64,000 bases of DNA from Thermoanaerobaculia bacterium (GCA_965116145.1 OZ220482.1:1089450-1153449), one strand, 5' to 3'; positions 1,828 through 59,231 are shown, counted from the first letter of the stretch. Notes: generated by a model not told the origin, from the sequence alone. Numbers and translations are program-made.

Positions 1828-1988
1828 AGCAGTCCGTGGCAGAAGTGCGTGTGGCACCGAGAGCGGTCAGGCGCCCGTCCGGCAAGGCGCGATGAGCGAG
1901 CATATCGGGATATATGTGAGCGAAGAGCAACGCAGCCGGACGGGATGCATGGCCGATCGAATGCAGCGCGACTTCTGCCACGGACTGC
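1828..1988 (+). repeat. MITE-like structured repeat, copy A (about 160 bp, terminal inverted repeats GCAGTCCGTGGCAGAAGT / ACTTCTGCCACGGACTGC)
   Basis: Near-identical copies occur at 15031-15189, 22203-22367, 32024-32174, 53368-53552 (inverted) and 59098-59231 (degenerate). An internal inverted repeat CCCGTCCGGC...GCCGGACGGG is present. The element sits between convergently or divergently arranged genes. Confidence 0.8.
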
Positions 1989-2159
1989 CAAGCGGGCCGG
2001 TCGTGCTTGTTGCTACTCTATCGGGTTCACTGCCGACCGCGACCGCACGGCACAAGATCACCGGTCAGGAGACTGCACGGAATGACGGACTCTGGCAGGG
2101 CCGCGGCCCGCAACGAACCACCCGACGAACTGCCGGGACGACCTCGCGCACGGAACCCG

Positions 2160-4331
2160 ATGGCGGCGATCGGCGTGATCGCCGGCACCCTGGCCGCCCT
2201 GCCGGTCCAGGCGAACGAATGGACATCCTGGAGAGGCCCCCACCAGAACGGCTACTCCGGCGCAACCGGCCTGATCGACACCTGGAGTCCGGACGGCGAG
2301 AACCTGATCTGGCGCCGGGACTTCACCGCCCGCTCGACCCCGGTCGTCATGGGCGGCCGGGTCTACGTCAACGGCCGCGCCGGCGCCGGCGTCGACCAGC
2401 AGGCGGTGGTCGCGGCCTTCGACGCCGGAACCGGCGAGCCGATCTGGGAAAACCGCTACAACCTCTACCTGACGACCGTGGCGATGAACCGCGTCGGCTG
2501 GGCGTCGCTCACCGGGGACCCGGAGACCGGCTACATCTACGTCCAGCTCGTCAGCGGCTTCTTCCTGTGCCTCGACCGCGACGGCGGCGTCGTCTGGTCG
2601 CGATCGCTCAAGGAGGAGCACGGCCGCTTCGAGGGCTACGGCGGCCGCACCGCGTCGGCGGTCATCGACGAGGACCAGGTCATCCTGAACATGATCAACG
2701 GCAGCTGGGGCAACCAGGGCCCGCCGCGCCACCGCTACTACGCCTTCGACAAGCGCACCGGCGCCGTCCGCTGGATGTCGACGCCAAGCGGCGCGGTCCA
2801 CGACCGGAACACCCAGTCCGTTCCGGTCGTCGCCGTCGTCGGCGGCCAGCGCCTGCTGATCGGCGGCGCCGCGGACGGCCGCATCTACGCCCTCCAGGCC
2901 CGCACCGGCAGGAAGGTGTGGGAGTTCGAGCTGTCGAAGCGCGGCCTCAACGTCTCTCCCGTGGTCGACGAGGCGGGCCGGGTGTTCATCTCCCACAGCG
3001 AGGAGAACGTCGACGAGGCCACGCTCGGCCGGCTGGTGGCGATCGACGGTAGCGGCAGCGGCGACATCACGGCCACCGGGGAGCTGTGGCGCTGGAACCG
3101 GAACAAGGCCGGTTTCCCCTCGCCGGCCCTCCATGACGGCCGCCTGTACGTCGTGAACAACCAGGGCAACCTGGCCGCCGTCGAAGCCGCCACCGGCGAT
3201 GTCCACTGGGAACTGAGCATCGGCACGGTCGGCAAGTCGTCGCCGGTATGGGCCGACGGCAAGCTCTACGCACCCGAGACGAACGGCCACTTCGCGATCG
3301 TTCGACCCGGCGACGACAGCGCCGAAATCCTCGCCCGCCACGAGCTGAGGATGCCGGACGGCCGCCGCTACGCCGAGTTCTACGGGTCGCCGGCGATCGC
3401 CTACGGACGGATCTACTTCACGACCGAGGAGGGCCTCTACTGTCTGGGCGACCCGGAAGCGCCGTTCGAGGTCACGGCAGCGGCCCCGCTGCCCGGCCTC
3501 GGCGACGAAGGGGCGGAGACAGGTCCCGCCGCGACGCTGCTCGTGGTCCCGGCCGAGGTCACCGCGAACCCCGGAGAGAGCCACGACTTCGAGGTGCACG
3601 CCTACGACGCCCGAGGCCGCGCGCTGGGGCCGGTCGAGGCCGCGTGGTCGGTCAGGGGACTCGACGCCGCGGTCGCCGGCTCGACCCTGACGGTTTCCGC
3701 CGACTCCGGATTCGCGGTCGGAGCGCTGGCGGCGACGCACGGCGAGCTGAAGGCCGAGGCCCGGATCCGGGTGTTCCCGCCGCTGCCCTGGCGCGAGGAT
3801 TTCTCGGGCGGCAAGCGCGGCCTCTGGATCGGCGGCGGCCGCTACGACGTTACCGAGGAGGACGGCGAGAGCATCCTGATCAAGCCGGTGGCGGAACGCG
3901 GCCTGCTGCGCTCGCCGCTGCTGATCGGACCGCCTTCGCTTGGCAACTACACGATCCAGGCCGACATCCGCCTCTCGCAGCAGGGCCGCCGCAAGTCGGA
4001 TGCGGGCCTGATCAACAGCGGCTACATCCTGGACGTTCTCGGCATCCACCAGCGCCTGCAGATCCGCTCCTGGTCGGCGATGCTCCGGGTCGAGGAGACG
4101 GTGGACATCGAGGTCGGGATGGACCGCTGGTACACAATGAAGCTCGAAGTCGAATCGGACGATGACGAGGCCCGGATTCGCGGCAAGGTCTGGCCGCAGG
4201 GCGCCGACGAGCCGGCGGACTGGACGGTGACCGCGGTCGACCCCCATCCGATCCGCAACGGCTCTCCGGGCCTGCTCGGCTACTCGCCGGCGGTGGTGTC
4301 CTACGACAACGTGCTGATCACGCCGAACTGA
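2160..4331 (+). CDS. secreted PQQ-like beta-propeller repeat protein fused to a C-terminal DUF1080 (3-keto-disaccharide hydrolase-like jelly-roll) domain
   Basis: The track ORF 2007..4331 begins inside repeat A. In-frame ATGs lie at 2082 and 2160; the 2160 start gives the signal peptide MAAIGVIAGTLAALPVQA. Repeated WxG / GxxYAL propeller blades follow. The C-terminal 220 aa (LWIGGGRYDV...NSGYILDV...WYTMKLEV...) match the DUF1080 pattern. The antisense ORF 2058..5285 was rejected. Confidence 0.8.
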   Translation: MAAIGVIAGTLAALPVQANEWTSWRGPHQNGYSGATGLIDTWSPDGENLIWRRDFTARSTPVVMGGRVYVNGRAGAGVDQQAVVAAFDAGTGEPIWENRYNLYLTTVAMNRVGWASLTGDPETGYIYVQLVSGFFLCLDRDGGVVWSRSLKEEHGRFEGYGGRTASAVIDEDQVILNMINGSWGNQGPPRHRYYAFDKRTGAVRWMSTPSGAVHDRNTQSVPVVAVVGGQRLLIGGAADGRIYALQARTGRKVWEFELSKRGLNVSPVVDEAGRVFISHSEENVDEATLGRLVAIDGSGSGDITATGELWRWNRNKAGFPSPALHDGRLYVVNNQGNLAAVEAATGDVHWELSIGTVGKSSPVWADGKLYAPETNGHFAIVRPGDDSAEILARHELRMPDGRRYAEFYGSPAIAYGRIYFTTEEGLYCLGDPEAPFEVTAAAPLPGLGDEGAETGPAATLLVVPAEVTANPGESHDFEVHAYDARGRALGPVEAAWSVRGLDAAVAGSTLTVSADSGFAVGALAATHGELKAEARIRVFPPLPWREDFSGGKRGLWIGGGRYDVTEEDGESILIKPVAERGLLRSPLLIGPPSLGNYTIQADIRLSQQGRRKSDAGLINSGYILDVLGIHQRLQIRSWSAMLRVEETVDIEVGMDRWYTMKLEVESDDDEARIRGKVWPQGADEPADWTVTAVDPHPIRNGSPGLLGYSPAVVSYDNVLITPN

Positions 4332-4376
4332 GCGCCGGGCACCGGCGAGAGGGCGCACAGGGAACGCAGCGAGGCA

Positions 4377-5534: not shown

Positions 5535-5598
5535 CGCCGGAGTCCGCGCACCGCACGGGCTGAGACCGGGCGAGTCCGCAACCCGAAGGAGACGTACC

Positions 5599-14709: not shown

Positions 14710-14735
14710 TCCGGCCTCTCGGGAGAGACCACTGC

Positions 14736-14770
14736 AAGGGCCCTGCTTCGGCAGGGCCCTTCCTTGTTGT
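14736..14770 (+). terminator. rho-independent terminator after the Hsp20 gene
   Basis: Perfect hairpin AAGGGCCCTGC-TTCG-GCAGGGCCCTT followed by the T-rich tail ccttgttgt. Confidence 0.6.
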
Positions 14771-14899
14771 CCGGCACCAGCGACGGGTGCGGCTCTGCCC
14801 CGCCCGGTCATGCCGGCAGGCAGGCTGGCGGTAGCCGGTCTACGGCGTGCAGGCGTCCGGGAAGGTGGTCACGTCGGCGAGGGTGCGGCCGCCGGCAGT

Positions 14900-15028
14900 G
14901 TGGGTGTACCGCCAAGGCCGGCAAGGCGCGATGAAAGAGCACATTGGGGCATATGTGAGCGAAGAGCAACGCAGCCGGGCGGGATGCATGACTGAAACGA
15001 ATGCAACGCGACTTCTGCGACGGGCTGC
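14900..15028 (+). repeat. MITE-like repeat, copy B (5'-truncated), in tandem with copy C
   Basis: Shares the core GGCAAGGCGCGATGA...GAGCGAAGAGCAACGCAGCCGGGCGGGATGCATG...CGACTTCTGC and ends CGGGCTGC-TA just before copy C. Confidence 0.7.
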
Positions 15029-15030
15029 TA

Positions 15031-15189
15031 GCAGTCCGTGGCAGAAGTGCGTGTCGCACCGAGAGCGGTCAGGCGCCCGTCCGGCAAGGCGCGATGAGTG
15101 AGCATACTGGGAGTATGTGAGCGAAGAGCAACGCAGCCGGGCGGGATGCATGGCCGATCGAATGCAGCGCGACTTCTGCCACGGACTGC
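15031..15189 (+). repeat. MITE-like repeat, copy C (complete, flanked by TA dinucleotides)
   Basis: TA-GCAGTCCGTGGCAGAAGTGCGTG...CGCGACTTCTGCCACGGACTGC-TA. Almost identical to copy A. Confidence 0.8.
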
Positions 15190-15260
15190 TAGACTGCCGG
15201 CCCGGCTGACGATGCCGTAGCCGCGACCGAACCTGCGGCCCCTGTTTGTCCTCCACCAGC

Positions 15261-22173: not shown

Positions 22174-22202
22174 CGCGGAACGCCGAAGCGTAGCAGCCCG
22201 TG

Positions 22203-22367
22203 GCAGAAGTCGCGGGTCGCACCGGGAGCGGTCAGGCGCCCGTCCGGCAAGGCGCGATAGCAAGGCGCGCTAGCTACGCATATTGGGGCATATGTGACCG
22301 AAGAGCAACGCGGCCGGGCGGGATGCCTGGCTCAAACGAATGCAGCGCGAGTTCTGCCACGGGCTGC
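22203..22367 (+). repeat. MITE-like repeat, copy D
   Basis: TA-GCAGCCCGTGGCAGAAGTCGCGGGTCGCACCGGGAGCGGTCAGGCGCCCGTCCGGCAAGGCGCGAT...CGAGTTCTGCCACGGGCTGC. It lies between the nth stop and the amidohydrolase start. Confidence 0.8.
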
Positions 22368-22375: not shown

Positions 22376-23044
22376 TCAGCCCTCCGGCAGCCCGTTGCGC
22401 GGGCACCACGCCGCCAGCGTGCAGGTGTCGCAGGCCGGGCGCCGCGCCGAACAGACCCGGCGCCCATGCCAGATGATCGCGTGGCCGGCGAAAATCCACT
22501 TCTCCTGCGGCAGCCGGCGCATCAGGCCGCGCTCGACCTTCACCGGATCGGTCTCGGCGGCAATGCCCAGGCGGCGCGCCAGACGCCCGACGTGAGTGTC
22601 GACGACGACGCCGACCGGCTTGCCGAACCAGGTGCCGAGCACCACGTTCGCGGTCTTGCGCGCGACGCCCGGCAGAGTGACCAGATCCTCCATCGTCGCC
22701 GGCACCTCGCCGCCGAATTCCTCGACGATCCTGCGCGCGGCGCCGAGCACGTTCTTCGTCTTGCTGCGGAAGAAGCCGGTGCTGCGGATCTCCTGCTCGA
22801 ACACCGCGGGATCCGCGCTGGCGAAGTCCTCGGCGGTCCGGTAGCGCCTGAACAGGTCCGCCGTCACCTGGTTGACCCGCTCATCCGTCGACTGGGCGGA
22901 GAGGATCGTCGCGATCAGGAGCTGCAGCGCATTCTCGTGGCGCAGTTCGCAGTCCGCGTCCGGGTACAGGCGCTCAAGCTCCGCCAGCACCTGGAAAAGC
23001 GCAGACTCGGAGATCGGCTCGAACGGACCCTCCGGTGCGACCAC
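22376..23044 (-). CDS. nth: endonuclease III (DNA glycosylase / AP lyase)
   Basis: 222 aa with the HhH-GPD motif LVTLPGVARKTANVVL, the catalytic K/D, and the 4Fe-4S cluster cysteines C-x6-C-x2-C-x5-C at the C-terminus. Confidence 0.95.
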   Translation of the reverse strand: MVAPEGPFEPISESALFQVLAELERLYPDADCELRHENALQLLIATILSAQSTDERVNQVTADLFRRYRTAEDFASADPAVFEQEIRSTGFFRSKTKNVLGAARRIVEEFGGEVPATMEDLVTLPGVARKTANVVLGTWFGKPVGVVVDTHVGRLARRLGIAAETDPVKVERGLMRRLPQEKWIFAGHAIIWHGRRVCSARRPACDTCTLAAWCPRNGLPEG

Positions 23045-32005: not shown

Positions 32006-32023
32006 CTCCCTGGTGGCCCGAGG

Positions 32024-32174
32024 CAGAAGTGCTTGCCTTGCCGAACGCGGTCAGGCGCCCGTTCAGCAAGGCGCTGCAGTTGCGCACATATCGGAGCACA
32101 TGTGACCGACGAGCAGCGCGGCCGGACGGGTGCGTGGCCGAATCGAATGCAGCGCGCCTCCTGCCACGGGCTGC
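32024..32174 (+). repeat. MITE-like repeat, copy E (5' end eroded)
   Basis: GGCCCGAGGCAGAAGTGCTTGCC...GGTCAGGCGCCCGTTCAGCAAGGCGC...GACGAGCAGCGCGGCCGGACGGGTGCGTGGCCGAATCGAATGCAGCGCGCCTCCTGCCACGGGCTGC. Confidence 0.75.
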
Positions 32175-35906: not shown

Positions 35907-36043
35907 CCGCGGAACAGTACCCTCTGGCAGTCCCTGGAGATAGTCGCACGGCATCGGTCAGGGCGACCCGTACTCTCGCCTCGGACTGCCGGGACCCAGG
36001 CCGGCAGGCGGCATCGGCACGCATAGGATCGGGCGGGAAACGG

Positions 36044-41472: not shown

Positions 41473-42561
41473 CTACTCGCCGCCGCCGGCAGATGCGAGC
41501 GCATCCGCCTCGAGCAGCCGGGCGCCGCGCATCACGTTGCCCAGCGCGTAGTTGCCTTCGTGGCAGGCGTACTCGAAGACCTTGTTGGGGGTTGACCGCC
41601 ACACGTACTCGCCGCTCCAGGCCGTCTCCCACACGTTCGGATCCTCGACCGTGAAGCCATAGAGCAGATCGCCGTTCGGCAGCCGCCGGAAGCGCTCCAC
41701 CACGTGCAGATCCCGTGTCGCCGAACCGAGAGCCGGCTCATCGACGAAGTTCGTCGTATCGACGACCAGGGTGTCGCCCTCCCACCAGCCGATCGAATCG
41801 CCCATCCACCGGCGCTCGGTGGCCGGAGCATGCTCGCCGTCGATCCGCACGACGCGCGCGTCGTGGACCATCTCGATCAGGATCATGACGTGGTTCCCGG
41901 TCTGCACGATCCGCTTGTGGTTGTTGTAGAGGGCCGGCAGCATCGGGGGGCCGCCGGTCGAACTGAAGCCGAGCAGGCAGCGCTCCGGATGCGGCCGCTG
42001 CTCCACGTTGTCGTAGGGGCCCGAACCGTCCTCGTTCTCCTCGAGCCACCAGGCGGTTCCTGTGTTCTTGTGGCCGAACGCCGCGAACTGGGCCGCCGCA
42101 CGCGCCATGCCGGCGGCGGTCATCTCGGGGTACTGGCCGTTCGGCGGATCGGTGATGATCGAAGTCCGCCACTTGCCGTCGATCCTGACCACGTTGTCGC
42201 CGGGATCCATGTAGAAGGCGTTGTAGCCGCCGCTGCCGCCGGACGCGACCTCGAGCCCGGGATCGAAGATCGGCGCACCGCCGACCGGAGGCGCTTCCCG
42301 GTTCGGGTCGCTGGGCTTGAAGTCCGCCTCGTAGATCTCCGTCTTGCGCCGGGAGATCGCGGCCGCCTCCTCGTCGCTCAGGGTCAGCCGGTCGCCGAAC
42401 TCGCGGGGACGCACGAGGGGCGTCAACGTCGCGGCGTCGTAGGCCCCGGTCAGATCGGGCCGGCCGTCGGACCGCCGCGGAATCTCGTCCTGCGAGACAA
42501 CAACGGCCGGGACCGCCAGAAGAGCCGCCAGGCTCAGGAAGGAAAGACGCTCCAGCTTCAT
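41473..42561 (-). CDS. secreted protein, paralog 1 of an unrecognised family (conserved C-terminal domain with WEGDTLVV and ACHEGNY motifs)
   Basis: The signal peptide MKLERLSFLSLAALLAVPAVVVSQ begins at an internal Met with the SD GGAGG 8 nt upstream; the track ORF 41473..42909 is over-extended. The C-terminal 150 aa are homologous to the C-termini of genes 45467..47305 and 47256..48107. Confidence 0.6.
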   Translation of the reverse strand: MKLERLSFLSLAALLAVPAVVVSQDEIPRRSDGRPDLTGAYDAATLTPLVRPREFGDRLTLSDEEAAAISRRKTEIYEADFKPSDPNREAPPVGGAPIFDPGLEVASGGSGGYNAFYMDPGDNVVRIDGKWRTSIITDPPNGQYPEMTAAGMARAAAQFAAFGHKNTGTAWWLEENEDGSGPYDNVEQRPHPERCLLGFSSTGGPPMLPALYNNHKRIVQTGNHVMILIEMVHDARVVRIDGEHAPATERRWMGDSIGWWEGDTLVVDTTNFVDEPALGSATRDLHVVERFRRLPNGDLLYGFTVEDPNVWETAWSGEYVWRSTPNKVFEYACHEGNYALGNVMRGARLLEADALASAGGGE

Positions 42562-42716
42562 TCCGGCACCTCCTGGTTCCAGGTCGTCAACGCAAGCCTC
42601 CCAAGGGCCGGGAGCTCGCACCGAAAGCACCAGCGTACCAGACCGCCGACCGACGCCGGCCACCGCAAACCGGACCTCGGCCCCGCGCGCAGCGTCGAGT
42701 TCTTCGGCACGAAACA

Positions 42717-42990
42717 CTACTCCTTCGGTTCCTCGAAGAACCGTGCGACCGCCCCGCCGGCGACGATCTCCTTGGCAGCGTAGCGGGTTGCGGTCTTCGG
42801 GTCCTTCCATCTGCCGGCCTGGATGAGCTCGGCAGTGGAGGCGCCCCGGGCGACCAGCGACTGGGCGCTGCCGATGCGCAGCGAGTGTCCGCTGATCCGG
42901 CCCTGACAACCGGCGGCTGTCGCCCGCCGCCGGATGCGCCTGCGGATCCCGCTCTGGCTGAGCGCCGTCTCGCCGACCGCGCCGCCCTTC
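42717..42990 (-). pseudogene. tyrosine recombinase (phage-integrase family) C-terminal fragment
   Basis: Only the last 85 codons of ORF 42717..43451 are integrase-like: GHSLRIGSAQSLVARGASTAELIQAGRWKDPKTATRYAAKEI, containing the HxxR box and the catalytic Tyr. The upstream part is Arg/Pro-rich junk, so this is a remnant. Confidence 0.55.
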
Positions 42991-43647
42991 GAGATGCTCC
43001 CTTGCTTCCCCTGTTCCTGCTCCTCTCCGGAGCTGCCTCCCTGCCCGCCAGCACGTCGCTTTCGTTGCCCGGCATCCCCGACTTCCGGCTGCCGTCGGCA
43101 GGATCGGTCGACACGGTGTCGCCGGCGGCCACGGGCGGCCGGCGCCCCTACACCTACAGCGTCAGCGGCCTGCCGTCCGGGACCGGGACGCGGAGGCGGC
43201 GGCCGACCGCGAGCACCTGGGAGAGCTGGACTGGTAGGGGCCGTCGTGGCCGTGCACGCTCCGAGGCGCTGTCCCCGGCGCTCACGACGAAGAGCTGCTC
43301 GGCATCGACTCTGCCCTCGGACGGAAACGAAGCCAGGCGAGTCACCAGACGGCAGAGACAACAGACGAGAACCGGCTCGGTGTCCCGACGGCTCCAGACT
43401 CGTTCGGCTACCAGCCTGATCCCGCCCTCGTCGGGTGTTCGCCATGGTCACCGAATCACGGCTGTTCGTCTACTGCGATCGTCGACCGGCGGCGGTTCTG
43501 GCGGGAAGCGGGGGATCAACGTGTCGGCCGCCAGGACCTACGTGCTCAGGCTGTCGTTTGACGTGTCGGTAGAGTTGACGGGAACGACCATCGACTTCTG
43601 GTCGATTCGGCCGGCCGGCCGACCGACGAGCAGAAGAACAGGGATGG

Positions 43648-45069
43648 GTGCTGATGCGAACACGACTTGCTGACATGACGTTTTTCTGGCTGCTGGTCAC
43701 CCTCGGTGCGGCGCCTGCTGCCGTGGCAGACGACAACACACTTCAGATGAGCAGGAACAGCTTCATCGACGCCTTTGTGACAGACACGGGACGAGCGGTT
43801 CTGGCGATCCATCCTTCTCCGGCCCCGGAGTCTCCTCATACAACACTCGTTTCCTGGAACGGAGCCGTCGCCAGAACACTCGAGATCGACCTCGACGTGA
43901 AGGCGCTCCGAGAGCTGACCGGCGACAGGCTCATGGTGCGGGGCTTCAAACGAGCGGATGGCCCCGAACCGGACCAGATCCGATGGCCTTGGCCCTTGGC
44001 CTATGGCTTCAGGGTCTATCGAGTGACCGAGTCCGGTTTCAGGCTCGAAGAGGAGTTCGACCTCGAGCCCGAGTGGGTCGAGCCGGGTTGGGTCGAGGTT
44101 TCGCCCGATTTGAGGTTGTGGGTAGGGATGACGGACTTGTATCCTCCGTACGAAGATCGTGTGCCACCTTCCGCTCTGGGGAGACGGTTTGCCTTCGGCA
44201 GCGTCAAGTCGGGCCGTTTGTTGCGGACCATGGATGTCGAGCTCTTCGCGGCGGCTCCGCTCGAGGACGACGTTGTGGCCTTTCGGATTCTGGGCTCGGA
44301 AGGGCCGATCGTACTTGCTTCCTACAGCACCAGCCTCTTCCTGCTGCGCTTCTTCGATGAAGGCGTGGACACGGTGCCGGTCGATCACCTGAGGGCGGCG
44401 GTGGAGCCCAGTGGAGGCGACCTTCGCGTGATCTGGCAAGACGACGAGAACATCCTCTGGGCTCTCGTGTCCAACGAGTGGCTGGCGTACGACCTGTGGA
44501 ATCTCGCGTACGCGTCTTCTGTCCCTCGGGAGCCGTTTCTTCGGCGCAAGGCGGCCGCCGGCCGACCGCATGCTGCCCGCGGCTTCGTTGAAGTGCAGGA
44601 ACGGACTGATGGCGCCTTTCGGGTCCGGCATGTCTGGCAGAGTCCGCAGTTTCCGGACTGGCAGGAAGAGCATCTGTCCGACTGGCAAGTTGGCAAGGCC
44701 CCAAGGAGTCCGATCGTGAGTGCGAACGGCCGCCACCTTCTGATTGTCGATGTCAGTCGTTCAGAAGAACGAGTGGACAGCACGATGGCACGGCGCATCG
44801 GACTGACGCGTGCACCGTCTCGACTGCCGCCGGAGGCTGCGCGGCAGAGAAAGAGCCGGCGGAAGGACCGGGATCGGCTGACGACGCCCACTGATGCGCC
44901 GGTCATCCCGTCACGGCGACAGCCCTCGTCACGGTCCACGCCAGGTCAGGGCTGGCCGCGGTTGTCGTACGGTGCTCCGGTGCCTGACGAACCGGCGAAC
45001 AGGCGGCGGCCGTCTGGCAGGGTGACGTCGCGGCCGTTCGCCCGCGGGGCGCCGTCGATCGCCTGGTAG
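43648..45069 (+). CDS. hypothetical secreted protein in a lower-GC segment; the 3' extent is uncertain
   Basis: Signal peptide MTFFWLLVTLGAAPAAVA. GC of 43.4-44.8 kb is about 58 % versus about 68 % for the flanks. The last 120 codons are Arg/Pro/Ser-rich and overlap the convergent DUF6152-like gene, so the true stop may be earlier, or the gene may be decayed. Confidence 0.35.
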   Translation: MLMRTRLADMTFFWLLVTLGAAPAAVADDNTLQMSRNSFIDAFVTDTGRAVLAIHPSPAPESPHTTLVSWNGAVARTLEIDLDVKALRELTGDRLMVRGFKRADGPEPDQIRWPWPLAYGFRVYRVTESGFRLEEEFDLEPEWVEPGWVEVSPDLRLWVGMTDLYPPYEDRVPPSALGRRFAFGSVKSGRLLRTMDVELFAAAPLEDDVVAFRILGSEGPIVLASYSTSLFLLRFFDEGVDTVPVDHLRAAVEPSGGDLRVIWQDDENILWALVSNEWLAYDLWNLAYASSVPREPFLRRKAAAGRPHAARGFVEVQERTDGAFRVRHVWQSPQFPDWQEEHLSDWQVGKAPRSPIVSANGRHLLIVDVSRSEERVDSTMARRIGLTRAPSRLPPEAARQRKSRRKDRDRLTTPTDAPVIPSRRQPSSRSTPGQGWPRLSYGAPVPDEPANRRRPSGRVTSRPFARGAPSIAW

Positions 45070-45470
45070 CCCTCGACCAGCACCTCGGTGCCCGGCGCGA
45101 CCGAGTCCTTCTTCCAGCCCCGCCGGACCAGGGCGCCCGGCGGGCCGCACTCGACCATCCAGGCCGTCACGGCGCCGTCCTCGTCCGTGACGTCGATGTG
45201 GATCCAGGCATGCGGGTTCACCCACTCGACCTTCGTCACCTTGCCGCGCAGCCGCACCGGCTTCGTTGCGTCGAACTCGGCGGCGAAGGCATGGTGGGCG
45301 GCCGAGGGCCTGGGCGGCGTGAACATCACCAGGCCCAGGGACACGGCGATGACGGAAGCCGGGAGGACAAGGCTGCCGGAGATCTCCACCGTCGGCGCTT
45401 GCCCGGCGCCTTGCGGTCCACGCGCCGGTCGGACGTTGCGCTCGGCGCGCTGCCTGGTTCTCCACTTCAT
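44946..45470 (-). CDS. DUF6152-like small secreted protein
   Basis: An internal Met gives MKWRTRQRAERN..., then a signal/TM segment, then HHAFAAEFDATKPVRLRGKVTKVEWVNPHAWIHIDV, a pattern I recall for DUF6152. The track ORF runs to 45674. Confidence 0.55.
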   Translation of the reverse strand: MKWRTRQRAERNVRPARGPQGAGQAPTVEISGSLVLPASVIAVSLGLVMFTPPRPSAAHHAFAAEFDATKPVRLRGKVTKVEWVNPHAWIHIDVTDEDGAVTAWMVECGPPGALVRRGWKKDSVAPGTEVLVEGYQAIDGAPRANGRDVTLPDGRRLFAGSSGTGAPYDNRGQP

Positions 45471-47305
45471 GGTCTGGCCTCCTGACCGGCGCCCGCATCG
45501 GCCTCCGCCCCGGTAGCGGCCGCGGCGGCCGCAGCCTCCTCGCGGTCGCGGGCCCGGGCGCCGGAGAGGATGTTCGTCATTCCGTAGTTGCCCTCGTGGC
45601 AGGCGTACTCGACGAGCTCGTACTGCTCGTTGTCGAGCTCGAACTCGAAGCGGGCCGTCCAGGGACGGGTCCACACGGTCGGATCGTCGACCGTGAACCG
45701 GTACTCCAGCCGATGCGGACCAAGGCGGGTGTAGCGCTCGGTGAGCTTCAGCTTCTCGCCGGCGCCGCGGTAGGCCGCGCGGCCGTTGAAGTTCGTGACC
45801 TCGACGACCAGGGTGTCACCCTCCCAGCGTCCCTGGGAATCGCCCAGCCACTGCCGGATCCCGGCGCCCAGGGGCTCCCGCGGTGCGGTGGGGATGACCC
45901 GGGTCTCGTGGATCATCTCCTTCTGGATGGCGACGAAGCCGGGACTCTGGCTGATCTGCAGGCCGTTGTTGTAGATGGAGGGCATCATCAGTCCCGGCAG
46001 TCCGCGGGTGATGCAGCGGACGTAGGGTGTCAGGTCTTCGGGCCCGGCGGGGCGGCGGCGCACGTAGTCGCCGAACGAAGCGGCGGCGCTGCGCCGACTC
46101 TCCTGCGCCTCTTCGGTCAGGGGCGGCAGGCGGCCGTCCGGCGGATCGACGACCATCGCCACCTGCCGCGACGGCGCCGACTTGACATAGCCGAGGGTCG
46201 TGTCGCGCCACTCGCGCTCGTAGCCCCAGATGCTCCCCAGGGTGCCCCGCTCGCGGCGAGCGGCCGCCTCCTCGGCGGTCAGTTCCTCCCGATCGGCCAG
46301 CTCTTCCGGCCGCTCCAGCGGAATCCCGTGCGCCTTGTTGCCCGACCACATCCCCTGCAGATCGGGAGCGCCCCAGGGAGTCCGCGGCACGACGTACGGC
46401 TCGGCCAGCGCAACGTCCTCCGGGTCCGCCGCTCGGAACCCGTCGTCGACGCCGCGCCAGCCGGATTCGAGCACCGCCACCCGCACGTTGTCCGGGGCGG
46501 CGATGAAGCCGCGGCGGGCCTCGGAACGCCCGCCGTCGGGCCGCGCCGGATCGCGGGTGAAGCGGACGCCCCGGTCACGCAGGCCGACGGCGGCCGTGTC
46601 GAGGTCGGCGAGTTCGAAGGCCAGATGGTCGATCGCCCGGCCGACGCTCGGCGCCGGATCGCCCTCGGGATGCCGCGAAGCAAACAGCCAGACCTCGCCG
46701 AACCGGAGGCCGTCGAGCGTGCCGCGCAGGGTCTCCGGCACGCCGCCGAGGGCCTCGCGGTACCAGCCGAGGGTCCGCTCCGGGTCCCGTGCGCTCAGGT
46801 GGACGTGATGAAAGCCGGGCGTATCCGGGTCTTCGACCAGCTCGATCCGCGTCCCCCAGGGATCGAAGATCCGGCCGACCCGGAACAGGCCGGGCTCCTC
46901 GCGCAGGGTCGAACCGTCGTCGTAGCGCTGCAGACGGACACCGGAGCCACGCACGCCGACCGCCTCCAGCTCGGCCATCTTCTCCTCCAGATCGGGGAAC
47001 GAGAAGCCGATGTGGTCGATGCCCGTGCCCTGGCTTGAACCCATGATCGGGCCCTGGGTGAACTCGATCACCGCGTTGCCGCAGTCGATCGCCTCGGCGC
47101 GCTCCGCGATCGGCTCGCAGTCCAGATGCCGCTCGTACCACTTGACCGCCTCGCTGCGGGCGGACGTGGTCAGTTGCACGGCGAGGCCGCCGTCAGCCCC
47201 GGCCGGGACCGCCGCCGTCAGCGCCAGCAGCAACGCCGCGGGCACGGCCGGGACGCTACGGATCGCCGTCGGTCGGAGGTTCTTCGCGTCGTCGCAGATG
47301 GCCAT
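45467..47305 (-). CDS. secreted fusion protein: tandem VOC (glyoxalase / bleomycin-resistance / extradiol-dioxygenase) domains plus the paralog-family C-terminal domain (paralog 2)
   Basis: Signal peptide after MAICDD. Two VOC-like repeats (GIDHIGFSFPDLEE...WGTRIELVE and AIDHLAFELADLD...). The C-terminus WLGDSQGRWEGDTLVVEVTNFN...YELVEYACHEGNY is homologous to paralogs 1 and 3. Confidence 0.7.
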   Translation of the reverse strand: MAICDDAKNLRPTAIRSVPAVPAALLLALTAAVPAGADGGLAVQLTTSARSEAVKWYERHLDCEPIAERAEAIDCGNAVIEFTQGPIMGSSQGTGIDHIGFSFPDLEEKMAELEAVGVRGSGVRLQRYDDGSTLREEPGLFRVGRIFDPWGTRIELVEDPDTPGFHHVHLSARDPERTLGWYREALGGVPETLRGTLDGLRFGEVWLFASRHPEGDPAPSVGRAIDHLAFELADLDTAAVGLRDRGVRFTRDPARPDGGRSEARRGFIAAPDNVRVAVLESGWRGVDDGFRAADPEDVALAEPYVVPRTPWGAPDLQGMWSGNKAHGIPLERPEELADREELTAEEAAARRERGTLGSIWGYEREWRDTTLGYVKSAPSRQVAMVVDPPDGRLPPLTEEAQESRRSAAASFGDYVRRRPAGPEDLTPYVRCITRGLPGLMMPSIYNNGLQISQSPGFVAIQKEMIHETRVIPTAPREPLGAGIRQWLGDSQGRWEGDTLVVEVTNFNGRAAYRGAGEKLKLTERYTRLGPHRLEYRFTVDDPTVWTRPWTARFEFELDNEQYELVEYACHEGNYGMTNILSGARARDREEAAAAAAATGAEADAGAGQEARP

Positions 47306-48107
47306 AGAGCAGCTCCTCGGAAAACTCGACACACTTGTACTCCAGCACCCGGACGTTCTGCTCCAGGCGCCGGTAGAGCGGCATGCGGATCGTCCAGGCG
47401 CGGGTGAAGACCTTCGGATCCTCGAGCGTCGCCTCGTAGATCATGGTGTTCGGACCGGTCGGCGTGTAACGCTCGACCACGCGCAACGTGTCGCTCGCGA
47501 AGTTGCCGGCACGGTCCAACCAGCCCTGGCCGTTGAAGCCGGCAGCCTCCACGACCAGGGTGTCTCCCTCCCAGCGGCCGTGCGACCGCCCCATCCAGCT
47601 ATCGATCGGCGCCGGCTCCGGATTCTGCTTGTCCATGTGGATCGTCCGGTTCGCCTCGGCGAAACCGTAGACGACCATGATGTGGGTCGTGCCCTGGAGA
47701 ATCCGGAACGGAAACGGCATGTAGGTCGCGCGCGGCACCCCCGGCAGATAGCACTTCGCCTCCGGGTCCTCGCGCCAGCGGTTCTCGAAATTCTGCCGCT
47801 GCTGCTTGCGGGCCCAGTCCTGATAGGGGATCTCGCCGCCGACAACGACGCCCTGGCCGGGCGGCATCGCGGTGAGCGTTCCGTACTCCGAAGGGCCGGC
47901 GGCGGCGGAATGGCCCTCGAGGTTCCAGTGCGCGGTGTTGATCGCCTGCCAGACACCGTTGATGTCCGGGTTGCCGTCGTGGTGCCGGGGGATCGAGTCG
48001 CCGCTCTGCGCCAGGGACGGCGCGGTGAGCGCCAGAGCCAGGAACAGCGCCGTCAGCAACCGTGGCAGCCGCGCCCCATCCAGTACGTCCTGCAATCGCT
48101 TCCTCAT
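47256..48107 (-). CDS. secreted protein, paralog 3 of the same unrecognised family
   Basis: 283 aa with a signal peptide; ...HIMVVYGFAEANRTIHMD...WMGRSHGRWEGDTLVVEAAGFN...VLEYKCVEF. It shares DG.PD..G.W and C...G.P blocks with paralogs 1 and 2. Confidence 0.65.
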   Translation of the reverse strand: MRKRLQDVLDGARLPRLLTALFLALALTAPSLAQSGDSIPRHHDGNPDINGVWQAINTAHWNLEGHSAAAGPSEYGTLTAMPPGQGVVVGGEIPYQDWARKQQRQNFENRWREDPEAKCYLPGVPRATYMPFPFRILQGTTHIMVVYGFAEANRTIHMDKQNPEPAPIDSWMGRSHGRWEGDTLVVEAAGFNGQGWLDRAGNFASDTLRVVERYTPTGPNTMIYEATLEDPKVFTRAWTIRMPLYRRLEQNVRVLEYKCVEFSEELLYGHLRRREEPPTDGDP

Positions 48108-48245
48108 CGCGGAAGGGTGAACATCGTCGGGTGGATGGACAGCATAGCCCAGCCAAGGCCGGCGCTACCTGCCGGATGCAGGTGGGACTGGACACAGGAC
48201 CCGAATCAGACTAGTCTGATCGACCAGACGGTACTGGAGAAGACG

Positions 48246-48491
48246 ATGACGACGATCGGCGCCTACGAAGCCAAGACCCACCTGCCGCGACTCCTCGACC
48301 GCGTCGGCCTCGGTGAATCCCTGACCATCACCCGACACGGGCGGCCGATTGCCCGGCTGACACCCATCGAGAAGGACGACCGGGAACGCGCCGCCGAGGC
48401 GGCCCGGCGCATCGAAGAGCGGCGCCGGCGGCTCGGACAGGCGACCCTGGCCGAGCTGATCGACTCGATCCACGAAGGTCACCGCTATTGA
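48246..48491 (+). CDS. Phd/YefM-family antitoxin
   Basis: This is the last 82 codons of track ORF 47010..48491. MTTIGAYEAKTHLPRLLDRVGLGESLTITRHGRPIARLTPIE is the classic Phd/YefM N-terminus. Confidence 0.8.
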   Translation: MTTIGAYEAKTHLPRLLDRVGLGESLTITRHGRPIARLTPIEKDDRERAAEAARRIEERRRRLGQATLAELIDSIHEGHRY

Positions 48492-48910
48492 GCGTCCTCG
48501 TTGTCGACAACTCCATCGTGCTCTGCTGGTGTCTGGCGGACGAGGTCGATCCGCTGGCGCAGCACGCACTGCTCCTGACCATCGGGCAGGGCGCGGTCGC
48601 TCCACGGCTCTGGCGGTACGAGCTCTGCAACGCGTTGCTCGTCAACGAGCGGCGGGGGCGCCTGAAGGCCGCCGACACTCGCGCCGCCCTCTTCGACCTC
48701 GATCAGATGCGTATCGAGCTCGACGTCGACCACGACGAGCCGAAGGTCCTCGACCTGGCGCGCAGAGGCGATCTCACCGCGTACGACGCCGCCTACCTCG
48801 AGGTCGCACGGCGCCGCGGCCTGCCGCTGGCGACCCTGGATCAGCGGCTTCGGGATGCCGCCGCCGCGGATGGAACGCCGCTGCTCGACGACGGGCCGGC
48901 AGGGCCATAG
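48488..48910 (+). CDS. vapC: PIN-domain toxin (VapC family)
   Basis: 140 aa. A TTG start overlaps the antitoxin stop (TTGA). VVDNSIVLCW...D...AYDAAYLEVA carries PIN acidic residues. Confidence 0.8.
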   Translation: MSVLVVDNSIVLCWCLADEVDPLAQHALLLTIGQGAVAPRLWRYELCNALLVNERRGRLKAADTRAALFDLDQMRIELDVDHDEPKVLDLARRGDLTAYDAAYLEVARRRGLPLATLDQRLRDAAAADGTPLLDDGPAGP

Positions 48911-49811: not shown

Positions 49812-50067
49812 GGTCCTTGCCCTCGGCTCGGGATGTGTCCAGGAAGCCGACAAAGCGTAGCAATCCGCGGCGAACGGCGGCGCGCCTGTCTGCCTGCGAC
49901 GACACCGGCAAGCCCGAGCGGTCCCTGAACCGCCCTCGGTCAGGTCCCGCGGCAGCCGTGGCGACCACATGCGGGATGGAGGGGTAGCGCCGTCGGGCGG
50001 GCAAGGTGGACACGAACGCAGCACGACTCTTGTCTTGCCAGGACTGTTGTACTAACGTGCGCCGCCG

Positions 50068-53196: not shown

Positions 53197-53367
53197 CTGG
53201 CTCCAGACACACGCATGGAGCGAACCGCAACCGGATCCTGCCGCCGCGGTTCCGGCGGCGGCTGGCGGTCGAGGCGGCGGCGGACCCTGGGCTGGAAACG
53301 AAGGACGCGAACACCGACCACCCCGGCGCGGGCGCGGATCGACAATCTGCATGCCGCAGCACATCCA

Positions 53368-53552
53368 GCCCGTGGCAAGAGTCACGCTGCATTCGTTCAG
53401 CCATGCGTCCACACGGCTGCGTTGCTCTTCGGTCACCTGCGCCCCATGTGCGTACGTTCCCGTCGGTCTGGCGGCTGCCACCGTGGTCGCGCCTTGACGG
53501 ACGGGCGCCTGGACCGCTCTCGGTGCGACCCGCACTCTTCGCCGCGGGCTGC
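53368..53552 (-). repeat. MITE-like repeat, copy F (inverted orientation, between the two TBDR modules)
   Basis: GCCCGTGGCAAGAGTCACGCTGCATTCG...GCTGCGTTGCTCTTCGGTCACCTGCGCCCCATGTGCG...GGACGGGCGCCTGGACCGCTCTCGGTGCGACCCGCACTCTTCGCCGCGGGCTGC is the reverse complement of the element consensus. Confidence 0.75.
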
Positions 53553-53642
53553 CAGGCGAGGAGCAACGCAGCCGCGCGATGTTCCTCACGGGTTGCCAGG
53601 CCGCCAGTCACCGTGCAGAAACCTGTCTGCTACTGTCCGCCG

Positions 53643-56841: not shown

Positions 56842-56861
56842 CCAGCCAGCCTGCTTGACCG

Positions 56862-56922
56862 AACCCGTTGGGGGCGCCGAACACACCGGGATCCGCGCCC
56901 GGCCGGCCAACCCCCAACGGAT
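56862..56922 (+). terminator. terminator-like hairpin after TBDR copy 2, containing a tRNA-Glu 3'-end-like sequence
   Basis: cccgttggggg...ccggccggccaacccccaacgg, followed by attcgttacgagcgcaagc, which resembles the tRNA segment ccccaacgggattcgaacccgtgttgcc. Confidence 0.5.
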
Positions 56923-56961
56923 TCGTTACGAGCGCAAGCACCGAGTGCGGAAGCGCGCACG

Positions 56962-57415: not shown

Positions 57416-57492
57416 TGGCGTCCCCAACGGGATTCGAACCCGTGTTGCCAGCTTGAAAGGCTGGAGTCCTGACCTGGCTAGACGATGGGGAC
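57416..57492 (-). tRNA. tRNA-Glu (anticodon TTC)
   Basis: The minus strand reads GTCCCCATCGTCTAGCCAGGTCAGGACTCCAGCCTTTCAAGCTGGCAACACGGGTTCGAATCCCGTTGGGGACGCCA. The cloverleaf is nearly identical to E. coli tRNA-Glu. The anticodon loop is CTTTCAA, and an encoded CCA is present. Confidence 0.9.
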
Positions 57493-57609
57493 GCGGATCG
57501 GGGCGCGCACGCCGCGGCCGACCGCTGTCGAACCGCAGAGTATACCCCCGTCACGGCCTCCGGATCCCGCCTGACAACGAGCCGCCATGCGAGCCGCTAT
57601 CCTCCGCGC

Positions 57610-59082
57610 GTGACCGGCGCGCAGAGACGCACCGTCGGCGGATCGCAGGCAGATCGGCCGGTGCTGATGTGGTTTCGTCGCGACCTCCGGCTGACGGACA
57701 ACCCGGCGCTCGCCTGGGCAGCCCGGACGCAGCGCCCGGTGGTCCCCGTCTTCCTGCTCGACGACGATCAGCCGGGCCGACGGCCGCCGGGCGGAGCCTC
57801 CCGCTGGTGGCTGCACGGCAGTCTCGAAGCGCTGCAGACCTCGCTGGACGGGCTGAGCAGCCGTCTGACGCTGCGCCGCGGCGCCGCCGACACGGTCCTC
57901 GGGCAATTGGTGCACGAGACCGGCGCGGCGGACATCGTCTGGAGTCGGCTCTACGACCCGGACACGATCCAGCGCGACAAGAGCATCAAGGCCCGCTTCG
58001 CCGGCAGCGGAGTGACCGCAAGGTCCTTCAACGCCGGGCTGCTCTTCGAACCCTGGACCGTCCGCAGCGGCAAGGGCGAGCCGTACCGGGTCTTCACGCC
58101 GTTCTGGCGACGCTGCCTGCAGGAAGAACTCGACGCTCCGACCGACAGTCCCCCGGCTGCACTCTCCGCCCCGTCGGCCTGGCCCAGGAGCGACGACCTG
58201 GACGACTGGCGGCTGCGCCCCGGCACACCGGACTGGGCAGCAGGCCTGCGCGCGGCGTGGCGGCCCGGAGAAGCCGGCGCCGGCGACGTGCTCGACACGT
58301 TTCTCGCCACGGGTGTCGACCGCTACAGCAAGGACCGCGACCTGCCCGGCACGACCGGCACCAGCCGCCTGTCTCCCCACCTGCACTTCGGCGAGATCGG
58401 ACCCCGCCAGATCGCGGCGGCCCTCAAGCCGATGGCTGGCCCAGCCGGGCGGGACGCCTTCCTCCGCCAGCTTGGCTGGAGAGAATTCAGCCACCACCTG
58501 CTCTACCACAACCCCGACATGGCCGACACCAACCTGCGAAGCGGCTTCGACGCGATGCCCTGGCGCAGCGACCCCGATGCCCTGCGCCGCTGGCAGCGCG
58601 GCCAGACCGGCTATCCCCTGGTCGACGCCGGAATGAGAGAGCTGTGGACCACCGGCTGGATGCACAACCGCGTGCGCATGGTCACCGCGTCGTTCCTGAC
58701 CAAGCACCTGCTGCTCGACTGGCGCCTCGGCGAGAACTGGTTCCACGACACCCTGGTGGACGCCGACTGGGCCAACAACAGCACCGGCTGGCAATGGGTC
58801 GCCGGCTGCGGCGCCGATGCCGCCCCCTACGTCCGTGTCTTCAACCCCGTCGCCCAGTCGCGCCGGTTCGACCCGGAAGCGCGCTACCTGCGGAAGTGGC
58901 TTCCCGAGCTCGCACACCTGCCGGACGACCTGATCCACGCCCCGTGGCAAGCGTCCGAAGCAGAGCTCGGCAAAGCCGACATCCGCTTGGGCGCCGACTA
59001 CCCGCACCCGATCGTCGACCACGCCGCCGCCCGAGCCAGAGCCCTCGACGCCTGGCGCCGCCACGTGCAGCAGTCCATGTGA
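57610..59082 (+). CDS. phr: deoxyribodipyrimidine photolyase (cryptochrome/photolyase family)
   Basis: 490 aa; GTG at 57610 or ATG at 57667 (MWFRRDLRLTDNPAL). The FAD-binding C-terminal domain has WREF, TGYPLVDAGMREL, TGWMHNRVRM and NSTGWQWVAG motifs. Confidence 0.9.
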   Translation: MTGAQRRTVGGSQADRPVLMWFRRDLRLTDNPALAWAARTQRPVVPVFLLDDDQPGRRPPGGASRWWLHGSLEALQTSLDGLSSRLTLRRGAADTVLGQLVHETGAADIVWSRLYDPDTIQRDKSIKARFAGSGVTARSFNAGLLFEPWTVRSGKGEPYRVFTPFWRRCLQEELDAPTDSPPAALSAPSAWPRSDDLDDWRLRPGTPDWAAGLRAAWRPGEAGAGDVLDTFLATGVDRYSKDRDLPGTTGTSRLSPHLHFGEIGPRQIAAALKPMAGPAGRDAFLRQLGWREFSHHLLYHNPDMADTNLRSGFDAMPWRSDPDALRRWQRGQTGYPLVDAGMRELWTTGWMHNRVRMVTASFLTKHLLLDWRLGENWFHDTLVDADWANNSTGWQWVAGCGADAAPYVRVFNPVAQSRRFDPEARYLRKWLPELAHLPDDLIHAPWQASEAELGKADIRLGADYPHPIVDHAAARARALDAWRRHVQQSM

Positions 59083-59097
59083 GAGTGCAAGTCGCGC

Positions 59098-59231
59098 CGA
59101 GGACGTGCAGACGCCCGCCCCTCCGGCAAGACGCGATGACGGAACACGTCGGCGATGCCCGATCGAAGAGCAGCGCCGCCGGACGGGCTGCCGGCCGCTC
59201 GAACGCAGCGCAACTCTGTCCGCGGACTACC
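59098..59231 (+). repeat. MITE-like repeat, copy G (degenerate)
   Basis: GCAGACGCCCGCCCCTCCGGCAAGACGCGATGA...TCGAAGAGCAGCGCCGCCGGACGGGCTGC...CGAACGCAGCGCAACTCTGTCCGCGGACTAC aligns to the element consensus at reduced identity. Confidence 0.55.

Follow-up and report, generated by a model that had tools for sequence, protein, structure and literature searches.

Bacterial MITEs are elements of 100-200 bp with TA termini, target-site duplications and transcripts that form long stem-loops (PMC2229807). The Correia/NEMIS elements of Neisseria (about 155 bp) carry terminal inverted repeats, duplicate TA and are transcribed into a single long stem-loop; their copies are interspersed beside genes, and no cognate transposase has been identified (PMC2229807). 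The ERIC/IRU sequences of Enterobacteria and Vibrio are imperfect palindromes over their whole length, end in TA, show target-site duplication and are conserved across genera, and their copy number varies between genomes, from low to expanded; the enzyme that mobilises them is not known (PMC2229807). The RUP elements of Streptococcus pneumoniae have ends that resemble those of IS630-Spn1, to which they have been linked (PMC2229807).

The window analysed here, a stretch of 64 kb, contains seven copies (c1-c7) of one element of approximately 160 nt, together with three short relics. With a probability of roughly 0.8, this repeat family is a non-autonomous mobile element, namely a MITE of the Correia/ERIC/RUP kind. 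The family had been noticed in a preliminary description of the window, and searches with blastn, nhmmer and a covariance model (filters off) each returned exactly the same seven copies. The 18-mer terminus occurs eight times in the window at three or fewer mismatches (0.06 expected), and a two-block internal pattern matches all seven copies, with 0 matches expected by chance. The copies described earlier are real, but several starts had been placed 10-30 nt off (c4 begins at 22193, not 22203, and c5 at 32013, not 32024), and those of c7 (59070, not 59098) and c2 (about 14856, not 14900) were also displaced.

Two copies are young and intact. Copy c1 (1829-1988, plus strand; 160 nt; covariance model score 180.6 bits) retains 47 of 48 consensus pairs, is flanked by TA (1827-1828) and CA (1989-1990), and separates the ribosome-binding site of grx4 (1196-1810, minus strand) from the conserved region upstream, at a distance of 18 nt from the start codon of this gene. 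Copy c3 (15031-15189, plus strand; 159 nt; 187.9 bits) shares 97% identity with c1, also keeps 47/48 pairs and has TA on both sides (15029-15030 and 15190-15191). It directly abuts c2 (about 14856-15028, plus strand; 60.7 bits over 14872-15022), an old copy with a well preserved 3' half and a heavily mutated 5' arm carrying an insertion of about 15 nt; the two share a single TA, c3 having inserted into the TA that borders c2 on the right. In another locus (L050), a partial copy lies immediately upstream of a full one. Copy c4 (22193-22367, plus strand; 175 nt; 136.7 bits), with nth (22376-23044, minus strand) on one side and an amidohydrolase gene on the other, contains about 15 extra nt resembling an internal duplication. 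Three further copies are old: (i) c5 (32013-32174, plus strand; 103.9 bits), which retains 34/48 pairs, is decaying and begins 7 nt past the stop codon of a beta-lactamase-like gene, (ii) c6 (53365-53552, minus strand, inverted; 188 nt; 97.8 bits), which keeps 36/48 pairs, has an internal insertion of about 28 nt and is found on the downstream side of a TonB-dependent receptor gene, and (iii) c7 (59070-59230, plus strand; 100.1 bits), with 36/48 pairs. The relics, which are additional to the seven copies first reported, comprise a 63-nt sequence with an internal deletion (35927-35989, plus strand; 22 bits on both strands) that retains both termini (GCAGTCC...GGACTGC) and the GTCGCAC block, a degenerate 3' half (49969-50043, plus strand; nhmmer E = 3e-4) reading ...CGAACGCAGCACGACTCTTG..CCAGGACTG, and a fragment with the conserved loop block GAGGAGCAACGCAGCCG (53556-53574, plus strand), adjoining c6. 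This genome has gone through an old wave of insertion (c2, c5, c6, c7 and the relics) and a recent burst (c1 and c3).

Each copy of the family is one long imperfect hairpin, i.e. a full-length palindrome, G+C-rich and gene-less, with a core of exactly 160 nt in 32 of the 38 full copies. The preliminary description had correctly recognised pairing termini, but it limited the structure to 18-20 bp ends and one internal repeat, whereas the whole element is a hairpin. From the outside inwards, it consists of (i) a basal stem of about 22 bp (perfect in c1 and c3), whose sequence varies among host lineages while its pairing is always kept, (ii) a conserved internal loop, GUCGCACCGAGA facing UCGAAUGCAGCG, (iii) two more stems, (iv) a conserved, purine-rich apical region (GGCAAGGCGCGAYGA ... 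GARGAGCAACGCNGCCGG), and (v) a small A+T-rich hairpin at the tip. The termini read G[G/C]AGYCCG, with G first at both ends. The family is present in Vicinamibacteria and Thermoanaerobaculia, with one copy each in records labelled Gammaproteobacteria and Planctomycetota; the scanned public collections gave no match beyond these, and no blastn match was obtained in plasmids, phages or 5,426 E. coli genomes. Copies of other genomes occupy unrelated insertion sites. The host of the window is a soil acidobacterium with a genome of about 69% G+C.

Copies c1, c3 and c4 are precise extra segments (about 160-175 nt) relative to related genomes. The c1 site is empty in relatives L066-L068, the c4 site comprises merely 19-29 nt in relatives, and at the c3 site L064 and L065 (about 80% DNA identity to the window at the nth locus) read CTGC-TA-CAAT, whereas the window reads CTGC-TA-[c3]-TA-GACT, so that a single TA corresponds to TA on both sides of the copy. 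Clean duplication of TA in a filled-versus-empty comparison is seen for c3 only, c1 and c4 each having one mutated flank. Approximately 100 kb of syntenic DNA of the five related loci (L064-L068) contains no copy. Among 36 distinct copies the flank consensus is C-TA/element/TA-G (C at position -3 in 29/36, G at +3 in 23/36), TA is intact on each flank in about two thirds, and both flanking TAs decay at an equal rate; CTAG occurs 11 times in the 64 kb, three of these being element junctions. The element inserts at TA dinucleotides, with a preference for C-TA-G, and duplicates TA. Its earlier interpretation as a non-autonomous transposable element with TA flanks is upheld by the three absences at orthologous sites, the duplication at c3 and the flank consensus, and the expected presence/absence variation among relatives is found for c1, c3 and c4. 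A palindromic TA is formally indistinguishable from an element-borne TA beside a ...CTA target, the geometry of IS200/IS605. Under an alternative that we consider unlikely, the element would move as a folded single strand. A structure-specific enzyme of the HUH/Y1 type (IS200/IS605, RAYT) or another would recognise its conserved loops and cleave it a set number of nucleotides away, at the foot of the stem; in this scheme the left CTA represents the target, and the right TA is part of the element. The symmetric flanks and the equal decay of the two TAs are easier to reconcile with target duplication than with an end carried by the element.

In about 40% of the independent copies (approximately 12 of 31), the flanking TA and the terminal G of the element supply the TAG stop of the neighbouring gene, a long ORF with high GC3; 13 of the 631 TA dinucleotides of the window lie inside stop codons. 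TA is rare in these genomes of about 69% G+C, yet present in TAA and TAG stops. Because the element has G at both ends, insertion into a stop codon rebuilds TAG and leaves the protein unchanged, which explains why many copies are found exactly at gene ends; such insertions would be neutral. At c7, the flanking CA and the first G of the element form an in-frame CAG codon of a photolyase gene, whose ORF extends four codons (13 nt) into the copy, contrary to the previous statement that every copy is intergenic. This CAG was probably once a TAG stop.

The secondary structure proved to be strongly conserved: 89.8% of stem cells are paired (versus 36-43% in slid controls), compensatory changes occur at 31 of 51 pairs, and compensatory cells number 180, compared with 64±6 in shuffles, none of 500 shuffles reaching the observed value (fold z-score -9.7). 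In the two basal helices 84-90% of cells pair across 36 copies, and the interior stems covary too. The loop blocks are nearly invariant across the family; across phyla, the interior loops are the most conserved part, above the termini. Covariation of interior stems is not explained by binding of a transposase to the ends, and both this covariation and the conservation of interior loops above termini are unusual for a DDE-mobilised MITE. Young copies of every lineage keep the fold whole, whereas it is eroded in old ones. Base pairs have disappeared from the old copies of the window, which places the constraint on the fold in active lineages and not at individual loci; its integrity in young copies and erosion in old ones suggest that the hairpin is required for propagation rather than for host function at each site. 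Cruciform or single-strand folding may bring together both ends of this very short element. Covariation could also accumulate without selection, through independent fold-back duplication of one IS end in each lineage or homogenisation of the arms by mismatch repair. Palindromic MITEs can arise by fold-back, and the young copies are nearly perfect hairpins, but every lineage has the same asymmetric loops, bulges and wobble positions (U35-G211 is present in 32/36 copies, G57-U190 in 29/36); independent fold-backs would not recreate these shared asymmetries and arm homogenisation would erase them, which leaves such an origin extremely improbable.

The two strands are not equivalent: G-U pairs outnumber A-C pairs (81 versus 46, conserved wobble columns excluded), the plus strand folds better in 32 of 38 copies, and covariance model scores are about 100-188 bits for one strand but do not exceed 44 for the other. 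A purely double-stranded mechanism does not predict a one-strand wobble bias. Movement of a folded single strand would be consistent with these asymmetries, with covariation over the whole-length fold (interior stems included), with the fixed core length, with loops better conserved than termini, and with the common orientation of six of the seven window copies. It would also agree with the element tree, which follows host clades, as has reportedly been described for REPIN-RAYT systems. However, the element is one long hairpin, whereas IS200/IS605 derivatives carry two separate subterminal hairpins, and REPs are 20-40 nt long and lack target duplication; furthermore, no Y1 transposase domain was detected among the approximately 45 window ORFs scanned.

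The element is non-coding, and its open frames arise incidentally from the palindrome and the G+C content: at the sole variable site of the conserved block, the change is non-synonymous with respect to the open frame, 1-nt indels distinguish copies from one another, and a peptide database search matched just eight tiny spurious ORFs. Host-serving structured RNA genes or cis-elements (an mRNA stabiliser, RNase III site, protein sponge or small RNA), with spread as a secondary feature, could likewise produce the strong covariation, the conserved one-strand G-U wobbles and the better folding of the plus strand, and the conserved single-stranded blocks contain GGAGGA and ARN-like repeats. Correia and ERIC transcripts do affect mRNA fate (PMC2229807), and in one strain pair (L052/L049) the element differs at 2/161 positions, against about 7.5-10% in its flanks. 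In a second pair (L021/L026), however, it differs at 6/160 positions against about 3% locally, i.e. with no extra conservation. The copies show no preferred orientation with respect to flanking genes (6 are co-directional, 8 antisense, 7 placed between convergent genes and 2 between divergent ones), the neighbour genes have no function in common, the hairpin is not followed by a T-run terminator, and the same loci are copy-free in close relatives. Rfam 15 at the gathering threshold matched only a tRNA-Glu in the window and nothing in the element, the hits in E-value mode were confined to plant miRNA models, which matched generically as long hairpins and scored far below threshold, and seven loci with diverse copies yielded no match. 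Taken with the loss of pairing in old window copies, these results make a primary host function very unlikely; the small-RNA family proposed as an alternative in the preliminary description is disfavoured by the unbiased orientation and the in situ pairing loss.

As a MITE, the element would depend on a transposase that acts in trans from another part of the genome, the most likely candidate being a TA-duplicating DDE enzyme of the IS630/Tc1 or IS5 (IS427/IS1301) type. MITEs derived from IS630/Tc1-mariner are marked by TA duplication at a CTAG/NTAN target and by ends matching an IS630-family element with a DDE_3 transposase. IS630 targets CTAG and duplicates TA, and C-TA/element/TA-G is the target signature of IS630 and IS1301; TA in CTAG is equally the mark of the IS427/IS1301-type members of the IS5 family, and the signature is not specific to IS630. 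The IS630/Tc1-like mobiliser suggested earlier is plausible with respect to its target, but the window, 68 other loci and the plasmid collection yielded neither an IS630-type gene nor an IS whose ends match, and the window ORFs scanned contained no IS630-type domain. The only transposase genes of the window belong to IS3 and a truncated IS1380, whose ends are unrelated to the element, and no extra terminus-like sequence was found in 65 loci.

Like REPIN/RAYT systems, the family is a hairpin-forming, non-coding repeat that persists within host clades under a constrained fold. The REP/REPIN-RAYT class is characterised by short REP palindromes with a GTAG-type tetranucleotide, a REP-flanked RAYT gene and the lack of target duplication. 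Assignment to it is nevertheless not supported: the element duplicates TA at c3, its arms are not short self-palindromic REPs, its termini have the sequence given above, and the window showed neither a RAYT nor a Y1 gene. The duplication and the size likewise disfavour the REP/BIME-like element considered previously. With RUP and other IS630-derived MITEs the family shares insertion at TA and the C-TA-G flank consensus; it differs in that the window, the other loci analysed and the plasmids contain no IS630-type gene and no IS whose ends match. The likeness to ERIC/IRU lies in the whole-length imperfect palindrome, the TA termini with target-site duplication, the conservation across genera and the varying copy number, whereas the window element is longer (160 nt versus 127 bp), resides in different host phyla, is absent from the E. 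coli genomes searched and has termini forming a much longer perfect stem. Correia/NEMIS resembles it in length, terminal inverted repeats, TA duplication, the single long stem-loop and placement beside genes. We know of no sequence similarity between the two; the blastn searches covered E. coli genomes, phages and plasmids. The window element is G+C-rich, whereas Correia is A+T-rich; it occurs in Acidobacteriota and a few other phyla, its interior loops exceed its termini in conservation, its covariation is documented over the whole length, and an IHF site or promoter is not among its established features. The class of structured bacterial MITEs is already known, and the 160-nt family, which has no name, is an addition to it, ordinary in kind but with a fold that is conserved to an unusual degree.

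Seven full copies of the approx. 160-nt hairpin element (c1–c7) were distinguished in the window: c1 (1829-1988), c2 (approx. 14856-15028, with a degenerate 5' arm), c3 (15031-15189), c4 (22193-22367), c5 (32013-32174) and c7 (59070-59230) on the plus strand, and c6 (53365-53552) on the minus strand. The same seven copies were recovered by a blastn search with c1 as the query, by a two-block internal pattern (which matches 7/7 copies and nothing else, with 0 matches expected in the window), and by a covariance model applied with filters off to the whole window (61–188 bits; the antisense strand of the element scores at most 44 bits). With up to three mismatches allowed, 8 occurrences of the 18-nt terminus GCAGTCCGTGGCAGAAGT were counted in the window, compared with 0.06 expected. 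The preliminary description had reported at least seven copies in 64 kb; these are real, but their positions were refined, e.g. those of c4 and c7. There are also three degenerate remnants: an internally deleted copy of 63 nt (35927-35989), the 3' half of an element (49969-50043) and a loop-block fragment adjoining c6 (53556-53574).

The G+C content of the window is approx. 69%, and is lower (0.60–0.63) in its last 4 kb. The genes are ordinary Gram-negative housekeeping genes (grx4, hsp20, an rpsA-like S1 gene, nth, a photolyase gene, and genes for TonB-dependent receptors and peptidases), and the encoded Nth and Grx4 proteins share 77–87% identity with proteins of uncultured Acidobacteriota, including those of the Thermoanaerobaculia chromosome OZ243982.1. 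The window also carries a type II toxin-antitoxin pair (approx. 48250-48910), composed of a Phd/YefM antitoxin domain at the end of the ORF 47010-48491 and a PIN-domain toxin (48488-48910). Four ORFs of approx. 260–480 aa within 41473-45100 (41473-42909, 42885-43673, 43546-44736 and 43648-45069) gave no Pfam match and are putatively coding.

Five loci of related genomes (L064–L068) are syntenic with window positions approx. 1–26 kb, two of them (L064 and L065) at approx. 80% DNA identity, and neither nhmmer nor the covariance model identified a copy in any of the five, where the window carries four in the same stretch. At the c1 site, the spacer between the PQQ gene and grx4 is 109 nt long in the relatives, and the same conserved sequence is broken in the window by approx. 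162 nt, with the junctions ...CCCGCT-TG-(c1)-TA-GCCAGGAA...ATG. At the c4 site, 19–29 nt separate nth from the amidohydrolase gene in the relatives, and the window has approx. 174 nt more. The c3 site reads ...CTGC-TA-CAATC... in the relatives and ...CTGC-TA-(c3)-TA-GACTGCC... in the window, i.e. the TA is duplicated. Copies found in other genomes adjoin unrelated genes. Judged from these sequence comparisons, the hairpin element is mobile. The earlier proposal of a non-autonomous transposable element with TA flanks is thus borne out by the absence of c1, c3 and c4 from the relatives and by the TA duplication at c3, and we consider it probable (roughly 80%) that this is a mobile, non-autonomous element inserting at TA.

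In the tandem pair c2/c3 one TA is common to both copies, and in the element-free hsp20–S1 spacers of L064 and L065 (reverse-complemented; L064 approx. 3420-3450), which read ...CGGGCTGC-TA-CAAT or ...GAACTGC-TA-CAAT, the approx. 10 nt preceding the TA match the 3' end of the element. These end-like nucleotides could either be what is left of an ancient copy or reflect a target preference for end-like sequences. With the former, c2 may be of ancient origin and have been largely lost from the relatives by deletion, c3 having later inserted into the junction TA; this order would predict both the TA shared by the tandem pair and the arrangement seen in another genome (L050), where a partial copy lies just upstream of a full one. 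The TACAAT of the relatives at this site resembles a -10 box for the S1 gene. Directly after hsp20 (14735-14770) lies a strong intrinsic-terminator-like hairpin, AAGGGCCCTGCTTCGGCAGGGCCCTTCCTTGTTG, which is also conserved in L064, and the c2/c3 insertions are located downstream of it. Copy c1 stands in the putative 5' leader of grx4, with GTAGAGTAGCAACAAGCACGACCGG, a block that the relatives also possess, on one side and the ribosome-binding site of grx4 on the other (1811-1828 and 1989-2100). The block is possibly the grx4 promoter region, in which case the grx4 leader would carry the whole hairpin, in antisense, approx. 18 nt before the start codon.

Analysis of 36 distinct copies gave the flank consensus C (29/36)-T-A / element / T-A-G (23/36), with the TA intact on each side in approx. 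two-thirds of the copies and replaced mostly by CA or TG in the rest. The flanking CTA and TAG can pair with each other in only approx. 55–60% of the copies, compared with approx. 90% for pairs within the element, and were therefore rejected as a part of the stem and assigned to the flank. Both TA and CTAG are scarce in this genome: the window contains 631 TA dinucleotides and 11 CTAG tetranucleotides, three of the latter being element junctions. In approx. 12 of approx. 31 independent copies, TA and the first G of the element form the TAG stop codon of an incoming long ORF with high GC3; of all 631 TA dinucleotides of the window, no more than 13 belong to stop codons. Copy c7 fits this stop-codon insertion pattern: its CA and the G make an in-frame CAG codon of the photolyase gene, whose ORF ends 4 codons inside the element. 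The element would thus target TA, with stop codons among the few TA sites at which it is tolerated, and as both of its ends begin with G, insertion into TAA or TAG would restore TAG and would presumably be neutral. Such rebuilding of TAG by the first base offers a simple explanation of why, in genomes rich in G+C, elements of this kind accumulate at the ends of genes. The copies show no orientation bias relative to the neighboring genes (6 are co-directional with them, 8 are antisense, 7 lie between convergent and 2 between divergent genes), and these genes have no common function.

Every copy folds into one long hairpin, with a folding energy of -100.7 kcal/mol (z = -9.7) for c1 as RNA and -50.4 kcal/mol (z = -5.9) for c3 as DNA. 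In an alignment of 38 full copies the core is exactly 160 nt long in 32. Covariation was scored on a structure of 51 pairs, in which 89.8% of the cells hold standard pairs (36–43% with slid partners) and 31 of the 51 pairs show changes on both sides. The number of compensatory cells is 180, compared with 64±6 in shuffled alignments (0 of 500 shuffles reach 180). The basal and middle stems covary, as does the apical A+T hairpin. This agrees with the preliminary description, in which the terminal repeats were expected to pair into a long hairpin, and extends the fold to the whole length of the element. Four blocks, GTCGCACCGAGA, GGCAAGGCGCGAYGA, GARGAGCAACGCNGCCGG and TCGAATGCAGCG, are nearly invariant and do not covary, and conservation in the unpaired columns of the copies equals or exceeds that in the paired ones. 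The fold is strand-asymmetric: there are three conserved wobble positions, outside of which G-U outnumbers A-C by 81 to 46, and the aligned strand folds better in 32 of the 38 copies (by 7.6 kcal/mol on average).

The upkeep of the fold differs between copies. In the young copies c1 and c3, which share 97% identity, 47 of 48 pairs are intact, and copies in other genomes mostly keep 44–48 of 48 despite differing stem sequences, whereas the old copies c5, c6 and c7 (60–80% identical to others) keep only 34–36 of 48. The fold therefore belongs to still-spreading lineages and decays once a copy is stranded, which is an argument for a role of the hairpin in propagation and against a host function at the individual loci; tests of in situ conservation on pairs of strains had mixed outcomes. 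Near the apex, two old copies carry internal insertions: c4 (within 22240-22285) has approx. 15 extra nucleotides resembling a duplication of AGCAAGGCGCG, and c6 (within 53440-53490) has approx. 28, so that a change of length at the apex is tolerated in dead copies, in contrast to the intact copies, which are fixed at 160 nt. As for other roles, no K-turn, loop-E, IHF-site or promoter reading fitted the conserved loops convincingly by eye, and an intrinsic terminator was discarded, the stem having no T-run after it. A protein-coding role was also rejected; a search with the open frame of the element against 5.8 billion proteins returned only 8 small spurious ORFs.

Pattern scans of species-representative genomes and JGI metagenomes yielded 63 loci, in 38 of which nhmmer confirmed the hairpin element. 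The carriers are mostly Vicinamibacteria/Vicinamibacterales MAGs, Vicinamibacterales MFD04651.bin.2.36 among them, with two Thermoanaerobaculia and single copies in records labeled Gammaproteobacteria (OX639965.1, Ca. Rariloculus) and Planctomycetota. In a neighbor-joining tree the copies cluster by host clade, and the family is therefore long resident. A different palindrome of approx. 75 nt with a similar terminus, GGAGCCTGCGCCGTAGGAAAT, was noted at a distance of 130 nt from the copy of Ca. Rariloculus (L018, 408-487) and may represent a second MITE family using related ends. No match was found in a scan of viral contigs, in an exact 23-mer scan of species-representative genomes, or by blastn against plasmids, phages and E. 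coli; Rfam contained no corresponding family at the gathering threshold or in permissive E-value mode, and literature searches with the conserved motifs gave chance matches to a 9-mer and none to longer motifs. The element thus remains without a name, as in the preliminary description.

The only transposase genes detected by Pfam and NCBIfam scans of approx. 45 window ORFs belong to an IS3-family element (approx. 60499-61753; orfA from 60540, orfB 60817-61752; inverted repeats GCCAAGGTGTACTCC / GGAGTACACCTTAGC) and to a truncated IS1380-family transposase gene (61727-62830, minus strand), inside or against which the IS3 is inserted. The ends of both are unrelated to the hairpin element. The loci searched held no extra copies of the terminus, a 41-nt terminus query against plasmids gave chance matches only, and among the 5.8 billion proteins no transposase read into the arms. 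C-TA-G with TA duplication is a signature of IS630 and of IS5-family elements such as IS1301. Being common to both, it provides a lead and not a test, pointing to a candidate mobilizer of IS630 or IS5/IS1301 type. Hence, of the earlier suggestion of an IS630/Tc1-like mobilizer, the target signature fits and the transposase itself is missing from the scanned ORFs. A single-strand or cruciform mechanism is a less likely rival, suggested by three features that a transposase binding double-stranded ends does not explain: covarying interior stems, fixed length and strand asymmetry. Both the fold, through compensatory changes, and the loop motifs have been retained in Acidobacteriota and in the records labeled Gammaproteobacteria and Planctomycetota. 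A cruciform with an A+T-rich center could bring the two ends of the 160-bp element together; an enzyme would read the conserved loops of a folded single strand or cruciform (or, less likely, of an RNA intermediate) and cleave the base of the stem at a set distance. That the hairpin itself is the substrate of such a structure-specific mechanism, undescribed for TA-duplicating elements, seems unlikely to us.

The hairpin family showed the MITE features tested for, other than a cognate IS, of which none was found in the window or in the loci and plasmids searched. It is a real, unnamed, structured family of an already known class, with a recent burst in the genome of the window. With it, a MITE family that spans several phyla and comes from little-studied soil Acidobacteriota joins a class described mostly from pathogens. 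The comparative evidence is unusually clean: compensatory changes keep the fold in every active lineage, and dead copies lose it. A function of the hairpin in propagation is thereby indicated, and it becomes possible to test why the MITEs of bacteria are hairpins over their full length. In practice, the copies yield spurious ORFs, can shift predicted gene ends (e.g. for the photolyase) and are markers of recent changes that distinguish the genomes of closely related MAGs. Bacterial MITEs of 100–200 bp, exemplified by Correia/NEMIS, ERIC and RUP (the last linked to IS630-Spn1), have TA termini, target-site duplications and long stem-loop transcripts (PMC2229807). In contrast to these textbook families, the hairpin element is G+C-rich, occurs in several phyla, has interior loops that are more conserved than its ends, and shows clear covariation support over the whole fold.
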